In this document: positions 14,425 to 62,028 of the stretch, in pieces
Numbering within the stretch: the first letter of the stretch is position 1
How the letters are laid out: every line of letters begins with the position of its first letter
Assembly: GCA_001464965.1 (NCBI GenBank)
Contig: LNEJ01000031.1
Location: 44,215 to 108,214, forward strand
Source: Gammaproteobacteria bacterium Ga0074134
GTDB taxonomy: Bacteria > Pseudomonadota > Gammaproteobacteria > Ga0077554 > Ga007554
Direction of reading: 5' to 3'
Length of the DNA stretch: 64,000 bases
The notes under the pieces: model-generated
Database searches by the model: none
Told to the model about the DNA's origin: nothing
Seen by the model: the letters and a program-made list of their open reading frames with translations, nothing else
Made by a program: the position numbers and the translations under genes

Positions 14425-14585
14425 AGAACCTGTTCACGATCTCGCTGAAGGGCGCATTGCGGCGTTAAAATCGAACTCAAAATGCTCACATACTTCGTGT
14501 ATGCTCCGCTTTTTCGTTCGATTTTGCCTTGCACTGGGAACCCTTCGCTGCGCTCTTCCCTTGATCGAGATCGTGAACGGGTTCT
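14425..14585. repeat. nested imperfect palindrome, element B1 (core in reverse orientation relative to B3)
   Basis: Outer arms AGAACCTGTTCACGATCTCG / CGAGATCGTGAACGGGTTCT. Inner arms AAAATCGAA / TTCGATTTT. Tip hairpin CATAC-TTCGT-GTATG. The 41-nt centre (14476-14516) is the reverse complement of 46105-46145 apart from 5 positions. Confidence 0.7.
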
Positions 14586-14995: not shown

Positions 14996-15070
14996 GGGCG
15001 ATTAGCTCAGCGGTAGAGCACTGCCTTCACACGGCAGGGGCCACTGGTTCGATCCCAGTATCGCCCACCA
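14996..15070 (+). tRNA. tRNA-Val (anticodon CAC)
   Basis: Hand-folded cloverleaf: acceptor GGGCGAT/ATCGCCC, D arm GCTC..GAGC, anticodon stem CTGCC/GGCAG with loop TTCACAC, T arm ACTGG-TTCGATC-CCAGT, encoded CCA. Confidence 0.92.
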
Positions 15071-26466: not shown

Positions 26467-27346
26467 TACGGACCTTGCCGCCATCGAGGCGTTTCTCGAT
26501 GCGATCTGGATGGAGCGCGGTTTAAGCGCCAATACCTTGGCGGCTTATCGCGCTGATCTTTCCGGTTTTGCGGCATGGCTGGCGGCACAGGGCAAGACGC
26601 TCATTTGCGCGGGGCCGGAGGATTTATCCGCTTATATGGCGACGCGCAAACATGTCCGTTCCATGGCGCGCTTGTTGTCCTGCCTGCGGCGATTTTATCA
26701 GCATCTGGTGCGGGAGGGGCGTTTGGATGCCGATCCCAGCGCGCGTATCGATGCGCCCAAGCTGGGGCGCCCCTTGCCCAAGTCGTTGACCGAGACAGAG
26801 GTGGAGGCATTGCTCGATGCGCCTGCGGTGGAGGATGTGCTGGGCTTGCGCGACCGCGCCATGCTGGAGTTGCTCTATGCCAGCGGCCTGCGTGTTTCAG
26901 AGCTGGTAAGTGCGGGTGTTGCGCAGGTGAATCTAAATCAGGGCGTGGTGCGTATCACAGGCAAGGGTGGAAAGGAGCGTCTTGTTCCTATCGGTGAGGA
27001 ATCGTTGTCATGGCTGGAGCGTTATCTGCGCGAGGGGCGGCCTGAGCTGCTGAAAGGGAAGCTCTGCGCCGCTTTGTTTGTAACGCAGCGCGGCGCGGCG
27101 ATGACGCGTCAGGCGTTCTGGTATCTGGTCAAGCGCTACGCGCAACAGGCTGGCATCGCTGCCGCCAGGATTTCCCCGCATACGCTGCGTCATTCCTTCG
27201 CCACCCATCTGCTGAATCATGGCGCCGATTTGCGCGTTTTGCAGATGCTGCTCGGGCACAGTGACTTATCCACCACGCAAATTTATACTCATGTCGCAAA
27301 AGAGCGGTTGAAAAGCCTGCATGCCAGGCATCATCCGCGTGGTTGA
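26450..27346 (+). CDS. xerD: site-specific tyrosine recombinase XerD
   Basis: IEAFLDAIWMERGLSANTLAAYRADL, HTLRHSFATHLL and LLGHSDLSTTQIYTHV. The start was moved to the ATG at 26450. The upstream extension to 26177 overlaps ogt and is rejected. Confidence 0.92.
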   Translation: MKADCDTDLAAIEAFLDAIWMERGLSANTLAAYRADLSGFAAWLAAQGKTLICAGPEDLSAYMATRKHVRSMARLLSCLRRFYQHLVREGRLDADPSARIDAPKLGRPLPKSLTETEVEALLDAPAVEDVLGLRDRAMLELLYASGLRVSELVSAGVAQVNLNQGVVRITGKGGKERLVPIGEESLSWLERYLREGRPELLKGKLCAALFVTQRGAAMTRQAFWYLVKRYAQQAGIAAARISPHTLRHSFATHLLNHGADLRVLQMLLGHSDLSTTQIYTHVAKERLKSLHARHHPRG

Positions 27347-27387
27347 ACCTAAAAACCTCAGTAGACTTCAACTGAGGTTTTTAGGTT
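27346..27387. terminator. 17-bp perfect hairpin after xerD, built from an inverted pair of the recurring GAGGTTTTTAGGT motif
   Basis: AACCTAAAAACCTCAGT (27346-27362) pairs with ACTGAGGTTTTTAGGTT (27371-27387). Confidence 0.55.
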
Positions 27388-27424: not shown

Positions 27425-27907
27425 ATGCCGTCCTTTGATGTGGTGTCAGAAGTGAACATGCCGGAAGTGCGCAACGCGGTGGATCAGGCCAACCGTGAGA
27501 TTTCCACGCGTTTTGATTTCAAGGGGTCGGGTGCGCACGTTGAGCAGGCCGAGGCGGTGGTCACCCTCCATGCCAGCAGCGAATTCCAGATTGATCAGAT
27601 GCTGGATATCCTGTTAGGTAAGTTTGCAAAGCGTGGCGTGGATATTGCCTGTCTGGATATGGGTAAAGTGGAGGCTGCCGGCAATAAGGCGCGTCAACAG
27701 CTCACTGTGCGTCAGGGGATCGATGCCGAACAGGCTAGGAAGATTGTGAAGCTCATCAAGGACAGCAAGGCCAAGGTGCAGGCGGCCATCCAGGGCGAAC
27801 AGGTACGCGTCACCGGCAAGAAGCGCGATGATCTGCAAGAGGTTATTGCGCTGTTGCGCCAGTCCAAACTTGATCTGCCCGTGCAGTTCACCAATTTCCG
27901 TGATTAA
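27425..27907 (+). CDS. yajQ: YajQ family nucleotide (c-di-GMP)-binding protein
   Basis: [34 protein letters not shown] is the canonical YajQ N-terminus. Confidence 0.9.
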
Positions 27908-28172
27908 GAGCCTATCCATGAATAAATCATCCCTGCGACGGAGGCCGGTTTTGCGCAGGGCAAGGAAGGCTGGGTGTAGTGTGCTTGTTGCACATGAGCG
28001 AAGCGTGACGCCGCACTGCGCAAAACCGGCCCCGTCCCTCCGGGTTGCGCCCCAAAACACGCCATGCGGCGTTGCTCGCCGCTCATTTGGAACAACCAAA
28101 CATCGCGTCTCGCGTCTTGCCTGGCGTGTTTTGGGGCAGCAACGCAGGGATGATTTATTCACGGATAGGCTC
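27908..28172. repeat. composite nested palindrome, element B2 (two core units in opposite orientation inside a 30-bp outer stem)
   Basis: Outer arms GAGCCTATCCATGAATAAATCATCCCTGCG (27908-27937) / CGCAGGGATGATTTATTCACGGATAGGCTC (28143-28172), one mismatch. Inner hairpins at 27943-28031 and 28044-28142. Confidence 0.75.
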
Positions 28173-28184
28173 TAAGGCGACAAG

Positions 28185-28919
28185 ATGATTAGACAAGTGT
28201 TTTTGATGATGCTGCTTGCAGTATCCGGCGCCCAGATGGCGATGGCGGATGATGCCGAGGTGGCTGAAATCAACAAGGCATTGCAGGTGTTGGCGCCGGG
28301 CGTCAAGCCAGACAGCATCACGCCTTCGTCGATGCCAGGGATCTACGAGGTGACGCTTGGCGCGGAGGTGGTGTACATATCGAAAAATGGGCGCTACATG
28401 CTGCAAGGCGATATGGTGGATCTGCAGACCAAGAAAAATCTGACGGAAGGAAAACGTGCCGCAGGGCGCCTCAAGCTGGTTAACTCCATGCGCGAAGACA
28501 GGATGATTGTGTTCGCGCCGACAAAGGTGAAACACACGATTACGGTTTTCACGGATGTCGACTGCGCCTACTGCCGGAAAATGCACGCGGAGATATCCGA
28601 GCTGAATCAGCTTGGCATCAAGGTGCGCTACATGCTGTATCCGCGAGCCGGGGTAAACTCTGAATCTTATGAGAAGGCGGTATCCGTATGGTGCGCGAAG
28701 GATCGCAAGACAGCACTGACTACAGCAAAGGCGACCGGCACGATTGCGAAGAAGACCTGTGAAAATCCGGTACGGGAGCATATGGCCCTGGCCGACAGTG
28801 CGGGGGTGAGTGGCACGCCTACGCTGGTGCTGGAAGACGGCAGGACGTTGCCGGGCTATGTTCCGGCGCAGCGTTTGGCCAGATTGCTGGATGCTGCTGG
28901 TGCGAATAAAGCGAATTAA
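28185..28919 (+). CDS. dsbC: thiol:disulfide interchange protein DsbC
   Basis: Signal peptide, N-terminal dimerisation domain, thioredoxin fold with FTDVDCAYCRKMH (CxxC) and GVSGTPTLV. Confidence 0.88.
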   Translation: MIRQVFLMMLLAVSGAQMAMADDAEVAEINKALQVLAPGVKPDSITPSSMPGIYEVTLGAEVVYISKNGRYMLQGDMVDLQTKKNLTEGKRAAGRLKLVNSMREDRMIVFAPTKVKHTITVFTDVDCAYCRKMHAEISELNQLGIKVRYMLYPRAGVNSESYEKAVSVWCAKDRKTALTTAKATGTIAKKTCENPVREHMALADSAGVSGTPTLVLEDGRTLPGYVPAQRLARLLDAAGANKAN

Positions 28920-35144: not shown

Positions 35145-35236
35145 GGTGTCAGTACATCTGAAAACTTCGGTTGGAATCTACGGCGAGTGCCTAATGCATC
35201 GAACCTCAGTCATTCTCGCTACGACTCCAATGGAGG

Positions 35237-35330
35237 TTTTTAGGTTAAATGGATGATGTCCTGTCTATATCGGCTATTTCTGGCGGATTCCTGACCCGTA
35301 AAATTGCCGCGCCCTTCATTACATTATTTT
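35237..35330 (+). repeat. direct repeat copy 1 (fimS-proximal side of the inserted gene)
   Basis: Collinear with 37257-37350 at a constant offset of 2020 nt. By hand count, 64 of 94 positions match with no indels. Identical blocks are TTTTTAGGTTAAAT and ACATTATTTT. GGCGGATTCCTGACCCGTAAAATTG (35282-35306) matches the equivalent block of copy 2 at 22 of 25 positions. Confidence 0.55.
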
Positions 35331-37367: not shown

Positions 37368-38759
37368 GTGGCCAGCGACAAAAGCATCGACAAACCCTGG
37401 GCGGGGCGTTTTACCGAGGCGACGGATGCCTTCGTCGAGGCGTTCACCGCCTCCGTGTTATTCGACAAACGGCTCTATAGGCACGACATCGCAGGCTCCA
37501 TCGCCCATGCGCGCATGCTGGCCCGTGTGGGGGTGTTGAGCGCGGCGGAGTGCGAGGCCATCACCGATGGCTTGCAAGACATCTTGCGCGACATCGAGCG
37601 CGGCGAGTTCACATGGTCGGTGGCGCTGGAAGACGTGCACATGAACATCGAGGCGCGCCTCACCGAGCGCATCGGCATCGCTGGCAAGAAATTGCATACC
37701 GGCCGCTCGCGCAATGATCAGGTTGCCACCGGCATCCGCCTTTATCTGCGTGACGAGATCGACGCCATTCTGGCCGAGCTGACGCGCCTGCAAGCCGCGC
37801 TGCTCGATGTGGCCGAGCGCGAGGCCGGCACCATCATGCCCGGGTTTACCCATCTGCAAGTGGCCCAGCCCGTCACCTTCGGGCACCACATGATGGCGTG
37901 GTTCGAGATGTTCAACCGCGACCGGGCGCGCATGCAGGATTGCCGCAAGCGCGTCAACATCATGCCCTTGGGGGCGGCGGCGCTGGCGGGCACCAGCTAT
38001 CCCATCGACCGTGCCTATACCGCCCAGTTGCTGGGCTTCGACGCACCGGCGGAAAACTCCCTCGACGCTGTCAGCGACCGCGACTTCGCCATCGAATTCA
38101 CCGCCGCCGCCGCGCTGATCATGACCCATTTATCGCGTTGCTCCGAGGAGCTGATACTCTGGTCATCCACGCAGTTTGATTTCGTTGATCTTCCTGATCG
38201 TTTCTGCACAGGCTCATCCATCATGCCGCAGAAGAAAAATCCCGACGTGCCGGAACTGGTGCGCGGCAAGACCGGGCGCGTCAACGGCAACCTGATTGCC
38301 CTGCTCACTCTCATGAAGAGCCAGCCGCTGGCCTACAACAAGGACAATCAGGAAGACAAGGAGCCGCTGTTCGACACCATCGACACCGTGCGCGGCTCGC
38401 TCAAGGTCTATGCAGACATGATGCCCGCTGTGCAGATCAAGCGCGACAACATGGCTCATGCCGCGCGGAGCGGTTTTTCCACCGCAACCGATCTGGCGGA
38501 TTATCTGGTGCGGCGTGGCGTGGCGTTCCGCGATGCCCACGAGATTGTCGGCAAGGCGGTGCGTCGCGGCATCGAGACCGGCAAGGATCTCGCGCAAATG
38601 ACGCTCGACGAGTTGCGCCAGTTTTCCACGGTCATCGAGCAGGATGTGTTTGATGTGCTGACGCTGGAAGGTTCGGTTGCATCACGCAACCATCTGGGCG
38701 GCACCGCGCCGGATCAGGTGCGGGCGGCGGTAAAGCGGGGGAGGGAGCGCTTGCGGTAG
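37368..38759 (+). CDS. argH: argininosuccinate lyase
   Basis: [19 protein letters not shown]-like string ([12 protein letters not shown]), signature [15 protein letters not shown] start. Confidence 0.95.
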
Positions 38760-38874
38760 ACTCCAGCTGAGGTTTTTAGGTGCAAGGTTTGGCTGGATTG
38801 TCGCAGGGTAAAAATGATTGGCGTGGCCTCCGGGGAGCCCGGAAGTCACGCCAGATAGGCTAAAAGTGCCAGGA

Positions 38875-46030: not shown

Positions 46031-46054
46031 GGAGGTTTGCCCGTGATTAAATTT

Positions 46055-46196
46055 AGGGTGCCTCTATAAATTCGATCAAGGCGCGATGGCAAGGCGGAAA
46101 TGCGCGAAAAAGCGGAGTGTACACGTAGTACATGAGCATTTTGAGCGCATTTCCAACGCCGCCATCGCGGCTTCAGCAAATTTATAGAGGCGCCCT
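46055..46196. repeat. nested imperfect palindrome, element B3
   Basis: Outer arms AGGGTGCCTCTATAAATT / AATTTATAGAGGCGCCCT. Middle arms CGCGATG / CATCGCG. Inner arms GGAAATGCG / CGCATTTCC. Tip hairpin TGTAC-ACGTA-GTACA. Core at 46105-46145. Confidence 0.7.
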
Positions 46197-60555: not shown

Positions 60556-60636
60556 TTAGAGGCAAGGGATCAGAGGGAGGGGATCAGTAAAGCGATTTCG
60601 AGCTGATATTGATCCCCGGTATCTGCTCCCTAAAAT

Positions 60637-62028
60637 ATGCACGACTTAGCCTTCGCAGCAAGATCTCCCGATGTGGCGACCGAGGCGCTGAAGGTCCCGC
60701 CGCATTCGATCGAGGCTGAACAGGCCGTCATCGGTGGCCTGATGCTGGAGAACAGCGCCTGGGACCAGGTGGCTGATCTGGTGGTCGAAGAAGATTTTTA
60801 TCGCCGCGATCATCGCCTGATTTTTCGCGCTATCGTCGATCTCTCCAGCCGCAACACCCCTTTCGACGTAATCACCCTCTCTGAACGGCTCGAAGCCATC
60901 AACGAGCTGGAGAATGCCGGCGGTTTGGCCTATCTTGGCATGCTCGCCAAGAACACCCCCACCGCCGCCAATATCAAAGCCTACGCCGCCATCGTGCGCG
61001 AGCGTTCGGTATTTCGCCAGTTAATCCACGTTGGCACGGAGATCGCCAACAGTGCGTATGCGGCAGAGGGGCGTGACAGCCCCGAATTGCTGGATAACGC
61101 GGAAAAACTGGTGTTTGAGATTGCCGAGCGGGGCGCGCGCGGCAAGCGCGGCTTTACCTCGATTAAGGATTTGCTGGTCAAGGCGGTGGATCGCATCGAC
61201 ACCCTGTTCCAGCAGGACAATCCTATCACCGGTGTGCCCACCGGATTTAGCGATTTTGATGAGATGACATCCGGTCTCCAGCGATCGGATCTTGTGATCG
61301 TCGCTGGCCGCCCGTCGATGGGCAAAACCACGTTTGCGATGAATCTGGCGGAGCATGCCGCGATCAAGACCGGGCTGCCAGTGGCGGTGTTCAGCATGGA
61401 AATGCCCGGCGAGCAACTGGCGATGCGTATGATGTCGTCACTGGGGCGTATCGATCAGCACAAGCTGCGCACCGGTAAACTTGATGACGACGATTGGCCG
61501 CGTGTTACCTCGGCGGTAGGGATACTGGCCGAAGCGCCACTGTTTATCGACGATACGCCGGCGCTGACACCCACCGACCTGCGCGCCCGCGCCCGTCGCC
61601 TGGCGCGTGAGCACGGCCTGGGCATGATCGTTATCGACTATCTGCAGTTGATGCAAGTGCTTGGCAATAAGGAAAACCGCGCCACCGAGATTTCGGAAAT
61701 CTCGCGCTCCCTCAAGTCGCTGGCTAAGGAGTTGAGTGTCCCGGTAGTCGCGCTGTCACAGCTCAACCGCAGTCTGGAGCAGCGGCCCAACAAGCGTCCG
61801 GTGATGTCCGATCTGCGCGAATCCGGCGCTATCGAGCAGGATGCGGACTTGATCGTGTTTATTTATCGTGACGAGGTTTATCACGAAGACAGCCAGGACA
61901 AGGGCACGGCGGAGATCATCATCGCCAAGCAGCGTAACGGCCCTATCGGCACCACGCGGTTGACCTTTCTCGGTCAATACACGCGATTTGAAAATTTCAT
62001 ATCCAACCGTTACAACGATGGCGAGTAA
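60637..62028 (+). CDS. dnaB: replicative DNA helicase
   Basis: PPHSIEAEQAVIGGLM, Walker A GRPSMGKT, IVIDYLQLM, and SQLNRSLEQRPNKRPVMSDLRESGAIEQDAD. Confidence 0.95.
   Translation: MHDLAFAARSPDVATEALKVPPHSIEAEQAVIGGLMLENSAWDQVADLVVEEDFYRRDHRLIFRAIVDLSSRNTPFDVITLSERLEAINELENAGGLAYLGMLAKNTPTAANIKAYAAIVRERSVFRQLIHVGTEIANSAYAAEGRDSPELLDNAEKLVFEIAERGARGKRGFTSIKDLLVKAVDRIDTLFQQDNPITGVPTGFSDFDEMTSGLQRSDLVIVAGRPSMGKTTFAMNLAEHAAIKTGLPVAVFSMEMPGEQLAMRMMSSLGRIDQHKLRTGKLDDDDWPRVTSAVGILAEAPLFIDDTPALTPTDLRARARRLAREHGLGMIVIDYLQLMQVLGNKENRATEISEISRSLKSLAKELSVPVVALSQLNRSLEQRPNKRPVMSDLRESGAIEQDADLIVFIYRDEVYHEDSQDKGTAEIIIAKQRNGPIGTTRLTFLGQYTRFENFISNRYNDGE

Follow-up and report, generated by a model that had tools for sequence, protein, structure and literature searches.

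A 265-bp double-hairpin repeat at the yajQ–dsbC junction is one copy of a small non-coding mobile element

Between a yajQ-like and a dsbC-like gene of Gammaproteobacteria bacterium Ga0074134 lies a 265-bp palindromic element, here called B2, that leaves hardly any other DNA in the intergenic gap. Is such a sequence a structured RNA kept by its host or a piece of mobile DNA, and what keeps its long stems so nearly perfectly paired? We examined B2 within a 64,000-nt stretch of contig LNEJ01000031.1 (positions 44,215 to 108,214 of the forward strand; hereafter the window), following an earlier note that had proposed, from the letters alone, either an RNA stability or processing module or a mobile hairpin element that inserts head to head. 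We find that B2 is one copy of a small non-coding MITE (miniature inverted-repeat transposable element). The best explanation of the data as a whole, and in our judgment a highly probable one, is a MITE with ends of the IS5/IS1031 type, an interior that behaves as one unit, and stem pairing maintained mainly at the level of DNA. Repeats of this sort are ordinary in bacteria, but the folded interior is conserved to an unusual degree. The locus is laid out as follows.

27425–27907: yajQ-like gene (Pfam DUF520/YajQ), with its TAA stop at 27905–27907
27905–27907, plus strand: TAA, at once the yajQ stop and the left copy of a 3-bp target-site duplication; a single TAA stands at the unoccupied site of relatives
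27908–28172: B2, 265 bp, between yajQ and dsbC
27908–27937, no strand assigned: left terminal inverted repeat (TIR), GAGCCTATCCATGAATAAATCATCCCTGCG, with TGA at element positions 12–14 and TAA at 16–18
27943–28031, plus strand: hairpin 1, a long stem (27943–27961/28013–28031) around a plus-strand core (27960–28014)
27960–28014, plus strand: parts of the hairpin-1 core, namely GCAAGG (27960–65), the tip TGTGC/TTGTT/GCACA (27980–94), TGAGC (27995–99) and ACGCCGC (28008–14)
28032–28048, no strand assigned: inter-hairpin spacer, CCGTCCCTCCGGGTTGC
28044–28142, minus strand: hairpin 2, a long stem (28049–28067/28119–28137) around a minus-strand core (28066–28120)
28086–28100: hairpin-2 tip, reading TTTGG AACAA CCAAA on the plus strand
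28143–28172, no strand assigned: right TIR, complementary to the left TIR at 29/30 positions
28173–28175, plus strand: TAA, the right copy of the target-site duplication, followed by GGCGACAAG
28185: ATG start of the dsbC-like gene (DsbC_N and thioredoxin domains)

The coordinates, outer stem, hairpins and tip stems described in the earlier note all match the sequence. The 30-nt outer stem has one mismatch and occurs nowhere else within the window, and the arms of both inner hairpins are 19 nt long and 95% complementary each. Every B2 hairpin holds one 55-nt core, the two cores lying on opposite strands: GCAAGG-14 nt-TGTGC TTGTT GCACA-TGAGC-8 nt-ACGCCGC in hairpin 1 (plus strand) and GCAAGA-14 nt-TTTGG TTGTT CCAAA-TGAGC-8 nt-ACGCCGC in hairpin 2 (minus strand). 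The claim that the window holds four different tip stems (TGTGC, TTTGG, TGTAC and CATAC), all perfectly paired, likewise agrees with the sequence. B2 has no coding capacity: it contains no transposase gene, and the only open reading frames (ORFs) that cross it, on both strands, are read-through artefacts.

Empty sites reveal insertion at the yajQ stop codon

Relatives carry the yajQ–dsbC junction without B2. Their unoccupied site reads …GATTAAGGCG…, and in one relative, whose genes are about 88% identical, a contig of 472 nt joins 27904 to 28173, leaving …GTGATTAAGGCG…. Empty-site joints run from 27904 to 28173 and from 27903 to 28172, each skipping 268 nt (265+3), and the empty site of the window copy was seen in three runs, with a single TAA or, in one, TGA as the stop. 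Because the empty allele has a single TAA and a 12-nt gap, B2 landed on the yajQ TAA and duplicated it. This is why the element begins right after the stop, and why only the original 12-nt spacer precedes dsbC; 12 nt is the ancestral yajQ–dsbC spacing. The comparison of orthologous gaps that the earlier note had recommended as a check returned presence/absence polymorphism together with the TAA duplication.

Two further loci have both states. One of them lies in the window, where the host carries the empty allele:

60625–60640, minus strand: empty allele, cccTAAAatATG, at a stop/start junction, where the metagenome-assembled genome (MAG) JACPOZ01 carries a B2-family copy (L008 6101–6365)

The second pair, L002 (occupied) and L025 (empty, catcTTAAttg), differs by +267 nt, that is, by a TA duplication inside TTAA. 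No empty site was found in four runs for L012, a copy flanked by TGA/TCA.

B2 is a dispersed repeat of the host lineage

We identified 18 near-full copies of B2, 79–97% identical, spread over 17 loci that lie in the window, in two gammaproteobacterial MAGs and in one metagenome. Searching with an 18-mer of the outer repeat recovered eight full-length copies and two solo-end remnants in the two MAGs, and an 18-mer of the outermost end recovered nine further copies and five contig-end fragments in metagenome contigs. Several copies (including L036, L038, L039 and L042) are internal-deletion derivatives of 139–254 bp, missing a core, a tip or an entire hairpin. A contig of run X10 joins 27945 to 28048 and so represents a copy without hairpin 1.

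In contigs from 8 public metagenome runs, word depth within 27910–28188 is 10–100 times that of yajQ and dsbC, and loose contig ends at 27903–27907 and 28173–28177 lead into unrelated DNA. B2 is dispersed at tens of copies per genome equivalent in the host lineage. Assemblies with the exact YajQ protein often break within or right after B2, and such repeats account for the breaks at this place in assemblies of the lineage. Relative to flanking genes, 5 copies lie in forward and 9 in reverse orientation. At one chromosomal site the 265-bp element has been inverted in situ: L001 1576–1840 (MAG) and L043 1971–2235 (metagenome contig) are one locus, with flanks identical at 58/60 and 56/60 positions and TAA…TTA beside the element in both, but the elements themselves match (192/205) in reverse complement only. 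We also observed that the 13 nt beside the element, AGGAGTGGGCTAA, are common to the right flank of L013 and the left flank of L001, different sites in the same MAG; this could reflect a target preference, paralogous gene ends or carried-over flank.

The TIRs, the target duplication, the many dispersed copies and the unoccupied alleles of relatives bear out the earlier suggestion of a mobile hairpin element. The observations named in the earlier note as contrary to its reading were uniqueness to this locus or non-compensatory stem changes; instead, a family exists, and its stem changes are largely compensatory. For annotation, B2 and both of its sister elements in the window (below) are best entered as mobile repeats, not as candidate riboswitches or small RNAs (sRNAs).

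The two hairpins form a single ancient unit

The interior of B2 extends well beyond the host lineage. Positions 28–238 of the element align to an Azotobacter chroococcum plasmid with 71% identity over 211 nt (E = 3e-18), and unannotated elements of 265 bp in A. chroococcum and 263 bp in Halomonas sp. PA16-9 share B2's length, its two mirror-oriented core hairpins and its central spacer. These elements have related ends, GGGYCTGTTGACG; they end in GGGYCTGTTGACGTTT, flanked by TA within CTAG or TTAG, whereas B2 ends in GAGCCTGTCTGTGAATAAATC. B2 has the stretch CCCCGTCCCTnCGGGTTGCGC, which reaches from the last part of hairpin 1 into the first part of hairpin 2, in common with the Azotobacter copies. 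The spacer at 28032–28048 varies least among the B2 copies, with a mean pairwise difference of 0.034 compared with 0.081 overall. The B2 unit is ancient, and its interior is a single conserved cargo, two mirror-oriented core hairpins with a short spacer, that travels with its ends as a unit.

The earlier note had instead envisaged head-to-head insertion. In a composite model of this kind, B2 arose locally when two core hairpins independently entered a pre-existing palindrome in the yajQ–dsbC gap. The two opposite cores, each in its own long hairpin, and the presence of single-core elements in the same window invite this reading. We nevertheless regard it as scarcely credible: it is the 265-bp unit as a whole, with its outer stem, that is found at 17 loci, the unoccupied site contains neither the outer stem nor anything else of B2, the inner hairpins are not flanked by duplications of their own, and a double-hairpin unit of the same length recurs in Azotobacter and Halomonas.

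Ends and target sites point to an IS5/IS1031-type transposase

The flanks of B2 copies follow a constrained pattern. On the left, T at −3 and A at −1 are present in every one of the 18 copies, as is T at +1 on the right; A at +3 occurs in 16/18. The flanking triplets are identical in 7 copies, complementary in 9 (comprising TTA/TAA, TAA/TTA and TGA/TCA) and of other kinds in 2. Identical direct triplets include TGA/TGA (L033), and TCA/TCA flanks a relative of the single-core C-type element (L027, below). The TIR pair is 30/30 complementary in most copies, though four end variants exist (ATCCAT, ATCCGT, GTCTGT and GCCTGT).

The ends of B2 read GAGCCTGTCTGTG…, and the commonest end in the family is GAGCCTGTCTGTGAATA. 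The commoner TIR variant, GAGCCTGTCT, agrees at 9 of its first 10 nt with the inverted repeat (IR) of the insertion sequence (IS) ISLrh; both GAGCCTGTCT and GAACCTGTTC match this IR, GAACCTGTCT, in what is a single post-hoc comparison. ISLrh, with IR GAACCTGTCTAGTATCT, belongs to the IS1031 group of the IS5 family, which prefers a 5′-TNA-3′ target and makes a 3-bp direct repeat (PMC12016507). From ends that resemble ISLrh and flanks that read T-N-A we assign the ends to an IS5/IS1031-type transposase; a DDE transposase of this kind would use the B2 ends in trans. B2 resembles MITEs derived from or moved by ISs of the group in its GA(G/A)CCTGT start, its T-N-A flanks, the 3-bp (TAA) duplication made by the window copy, and in being small, non-coding, multi-copy and polymorphic in presence. 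It differs in that complementary triplets flank half of the copies, in that a duplication of 2 bp is indicated at one empty site, and in that the interior is a conserved double-hairpin cargo and not obviously the left and right ends of an IS.

Several observations weigh against this assignment. Neither the 434 kb examined nor the hits of two collection scans contained an autonomous IS with matching ends, and the target duplication is not uniformly a 3-bp direct one: identical triplets occur in just 7/18 copies, the L002/L025 pair gives +2 (TA within TTAA), and TA stands on either side of the Azotobacter and Halomonas relatives (CTA/TAG and TTA/TAG). GRRYCTGT end pairs 90–1,800 bp apart delimit MITE-sized elements only in all DNA examined. 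As candidates for a parent IS, 11 extra loci from a metagenome scan with the outer TIR proved to be chance matches without a partner end. As the sole model of the flanks, a TNA duplication of strictly 3 bp, a duplication of strictly TA and an element of 267 bp without duplication each fail on at least one copy or empty site.

An alternative is that B2 is moved by a TA-duplicating transposase of the IS630/Tc1-mariner type, the type usually proposed for ERIC and Correia elements. The 267 nt added at L002 and the TA beside both ends of the Azotobacter and Halomonas relatives, within CTAG and TTAG, are what such an enzyme would leave, and an IS630-family transposase gene abuts one Azotobacter copy. 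However, the window copy added 268 nt with a TAA duplication, the TGA/TGA and TGA/TCA copies and the TCA/TCA relative have no TA beside the element, and T at −3 and A at −1 are invariant; in most copies the left-adjoining base is A and not a TA dinucleotide. Furthermore, the B2 ends resemble the IR of an IS1031-group IS, and the IS630-family element in L055 has unrelated ends. We therefore consider a TA-duplicating enzyme unlikely and retain the IS5/IS1031-type assignment. In L055 itself, the copy at 583–740 is an Azotobacter double-hairpin element without its left end, adjoining the annotated IS630-family transposase gene, whose ends look unrelated.

Stem pairing is probably maintained mainly at the DNA level

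Copies of B2 diverge while their arms remain complementary. Across the family 97.9% of stem cells pair, and nine stem pairs (14 cells) have changed on both sides, compared with 3.0 ± 1.2 in shuffles (0/500 as high) and at most 1 in slid controls; several of these two-sided changes are each confined to one copy. When six sequences spanning B2, Azotobacter and Halomonas taxa are aligned, 19/75 predicted pairs are retained via changes on both sides.

Template switching within quasipalindromes, a well-documented process in E. coli, makes imperfect inverted repeats perfect (PMC7202029). It could also turn initially identical flanking triplets complementary, and produce in-place inversion and the occurrence of both orientations. 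Given the complementary triplets, the L001/L043 inversion and the two orientations, we attribute pairing mainly to the DNA level and not to RNA function. The likely processes would be arm-to-arm template switching or recombination within the quasipalindrome, and selection on elements that need folding or end pairing for continued transposition would also maintain the arms. Arm-to-arm correction may even extend into the target duplication, making its middle base complementary. In this respect palindromic mobile DNA explains the perfect pairing of differing stems at least as well as RNA structure does.

Two patterns run counter to a purely DNA-level account. The junction motifs (mean pairwise difference 0.051) and the spacer (0.034) differ 2.5–4 times less among copies than do the tips and the other parts of the cores (0.125–0.131), and the stems covary across orders of bacteria. 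Both patterns indicate a sequence-specific constraint for which simple palindrome correction does not account.

One possibility, then, is that B2 is first of all a structured RNA with a function, which the host keeps as a module for stability, processing or translational coupling, with stems under selection for RNA pairing. The predicted fold is extremely stable (plus strand −169.5 kcal/mol, minus strand −166.6; z = −13.9 on either strand, with 0/200 shuffles folding as well), compensatory change is significant within the family and across taxa, the unpaired junction motifs are conserved, co-transcription is likely in view of the 12-nt original spacer and the lack of promoter or terminator motifs, and the majority of copies exactly occupy the space from a stop codon to the start codon that follows. 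Yet close relatives do without B2 at yajQ–dsbC; B2 is a dispersed repeat with TIRs and target duplications, present in both orientations (5 forward, 9 reverse) and flipped at one locus; its two strands fold equally well; and copies persist in which a core is deleted or a tip broken. Among stem mismatches there is no clear strand-tied excess of G·U, in numbers that are small and too few to decide between G·U and A·C. Nor does B2 have an Rfam 15 match: none reached the gathering score, and permissive thresholds gave nothing better than E = 3. On balance a host-kept RNA seems to us improbable as the primary nature of B2, and maintenance of palindromic mobile DNA the better account. B2-type data give an unusually clear picture of a palindromic element that keeps its arms complementary, and a caution that perfectly covarying stems in repeated DNA are not proof of RNA function.

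Consequences for the yajQ–dsbC transcript

A mobile element may nonetheless affect the transcript in which it lies. Because the ancestral spacer is 12 nt, yajQ and dsbC were almost certainly one transcript before the insertion. We found no promoter-like or terminator-like motif in B2 and no T-run after it, and B2 is probably transcribed together with its neighbors. On such a transcript a fold of about −170 kcal/mol would bring the yajQ stop codon and the ribosome-binding region of dsbC together at the base of the stem. By placing the stop codon beside the native TAAGG ribosome-binding sequence in this way, the fold would tend to preserve translation of dsbC. In Correia elements, which are co-transcribed with neighboring genes, the hairpins are cut by RNase III at the paired TIRs, and ERIC has an RNase E site (PMC10969869). 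By analogy the 30-bp helix of B2 is likely a substrate for RNase III, and B2 may shift how stable one half of the mRNA is relative to the other.

Insertions favor stop codons

Insertion at a stop codon is a recurrent feature of the family. A long ORF terminates exactly at the flanking triplet, or no more than 5 nt from it, at 8/17 loci, and at 3/17 a long ORF ends 14 nt within the TIR, at the TIR's TGA; a downstream start codon lies 3–12 nt past the other end at 8/17. TAA and TGA are T-N-A triplets, and insertion at them breaks no gene; in tightly packed operons they are among the few T-N-A sites where an insertion leaves genes intact. Each end of the element furthermore carries TGA (positions 12–14) and TAA (16–18), so reading frames entering from either side stop quickly. 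The B2 family is thus a clean natural example of a stop-codon-targeting element, able to sit at stop/start junctions inside operons. We regard the targeting of stop codons, a cargo conserved across orders and end types, and correction that may reach into the target duplication as mildly unusual.

Single-core relatives share a longer core

Two further elements in the window carry a single core related to those of B2.

14426–14584, minus strand: A-type element, TIR GAACCYGTTCACGATC, flanked by TAA/TAA, with a long-type core at 14459–14532
46056–46196, plus strand: C-type element, TIR GGGTGCCTCTATAAATTCG, flanked by TTA at 46053–55 and 46197–99, with a long-type core at 46089–46162

A second copy of the A-type element lies at another locus, in MAG JAKFXX01 (L013 558–698), and the second copy of the C-type element, the TCA/TCA-flanked one in L027, has a compensated tip stem, TTTAC/GTAAA. 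The core pattern that the earlier note had extended to all four copies holds for the two B2 cores but needs amending at 14.4 kb (minus strand) and 46.1 kb (plus strand), where 23 nt and not 14 precede the tip and TGAGC is 18 nt and not 8 from ACGCCGC. These longer spacings accommodate an extra 10-bp helix. About 400 nt from the A-type element lies a tRNA gene (14996–15067; 68.9 bits), the sole match when the window was scanned against Rfam at the gathering score.

The relation between B2-type and long-type cores is real, to judge from a covariance model (R1) of long-type cores with no B2 in its training. R1 finds the hairpin-1 core of the window (21.6 bits, E = 5e-4) and four other B2 copies (E = 5e-7 to 8e-5, up to 30.6 bits); it does not detect the hairpin-2 core. 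Among twelve long-type cores, double changes occur in 15/26 pairs, with a covariation score of 0.399 compared with 0.134 in shuffles (0/500 as high); slid controls do not exceed 0.13.

Long-type relatives with a single core are found in Halomonas, Pseudomonas veronii, Klebsiella aerogenes (in the dnaN–recF gap) and four IMG/VR contigs. The latter (L049–L052), classed as viral, have exact matches to the long-type core pattern, each with outer stems of its own. A long-type core repeat is present in all 5426 E. coli genomes searched, with a median of 5 copies. The K-12 copy in the ucpA–cysP gap (L054 5611–5823; NC_000913.3 about 2543610–2543822) belongs to a repeat of about 150 bp, which may be the ‘RSA’ repeat of the K-12 genome paper. 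This repeat, present in E. coli and Klebsiella, has in common with the 14.4- and 46.1-kb elements the long-type core GAAA(A/C)(C/G)CGGAG-[CGTAC…GTACG]-TGAG(C/G)ATTT(C/T)GAG, and BLAST of a window long-type core against it gives 92% identity over 37 nt (E = 7e-5). Its ends, in contrast, begin with GAAC, it has a single core and outer stems unlike those of B2, and it occurs at about 5 copies per genome; it is related to B2 through the core only (the long-type model on hairpin 1, E = 5e-4). A literature search by core sequence and repeat names found nothing useful. Against Rfam, the E. coli relative has a sub-threshold match to the Xanthomonas sRNA sX9 (29 bits; gathering score 44), and the A- and C-type elements gave only spurious microRNA-hairpin matches and sX9 at 18 bits.

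A tentative reading, which we think possible but would not favor, is that the conserved functional unit is the interior core hairpin and not the ends, kept singly or as a mirror pair in MITEs with different ends. The core has a fixed GCAAGG…ACGCCGC base and a (G)GAG-[5-bp tip]-TGAGC top, and covarying stems with fixed junctions would fit a specific partner: for the RNA, a host protein or nuclease, or for the folded DNA, a transposase or host factor. The MITEs of E. coli, Klebsiella, Pseudomonas, Halomonas, Azotobacter and the host lineage in which the core is kept may then carry and exchange it as a cassette. If the core has such a partner, repeats that the literature does not at present connect, in E. 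coli, pseudomonads and environmental bacteria, would be linked.

Comparison with other repeat families

B2 shares general features with several known families of intergenic repeats. Correia/NEMIS elements of Neisseria and B2 are both intergenic MITEs of the 100–160-bp class with long TIRs. Correia elements duplicate TA, and their TIRs are unlike that of B2. Their interior contains TGAGC…GGCGAGGCAACGCCG-like strings, a possible resemblance to the B2 core.

The 127-bp enterobacterial repeat ERIC/IRU is, like B2, an imperfect palindromic, MITE-like intergenic repeat, and its central tip, GGAG-[5-bp stem, 4-nt loop]-TGA, is like that of the long-type core. It alters mRNA decay depending on its orientation (PMC10969869). 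As a family for B2 it was rejected: Smith-Waterman comparisons of ERIC with the C-type element, hairpin 1 and whole B2 gave z = 1.3–1.8, with 38–59 of 500 shuffles scoring as well, and the A-type element reached z = 3.7 in an alignment that covers a different region. With R1, ERIC scored 13.1 bits (E = 0.28), on the tip only. The RU-2/YPAL repeat of Yersinia bears no resemblance to the cores on reading (sequence from PMC2759123).

Palindromic units of opposite orientation, combined in intergenic DNA, could also suggest a REP/BIME or REPIN-type element, spread by a RAYT (TnpA-REP) acting on single-stranded hairpins, and REPIN hairpins are reportedly maintained by compensatory change. B2, however, is 265 bp long and has 30-bp TIRs with IS5-like ends and a target duplication shown by its empty site, and on reading the window sequence we see no conserved GTAG-type tetranucleotide beside the palindromes. 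RAYT-driven spread is thus very unlikely.

Upstream of yajQ, a 20-bp perfect hairpin (AACCTAAAAACCTCAGTAGA / TCAACTGAGGTTTTTAGGTT) lies at 27346–27387, directly after the stop of a xerD-like gene. Its 3′ half, GACTYCA..GAGGTTTTTAGGT, recurs at 35223–35253 and 38759–38789, and the hairpin looks like a second small repeat family, possibly terminator-like.

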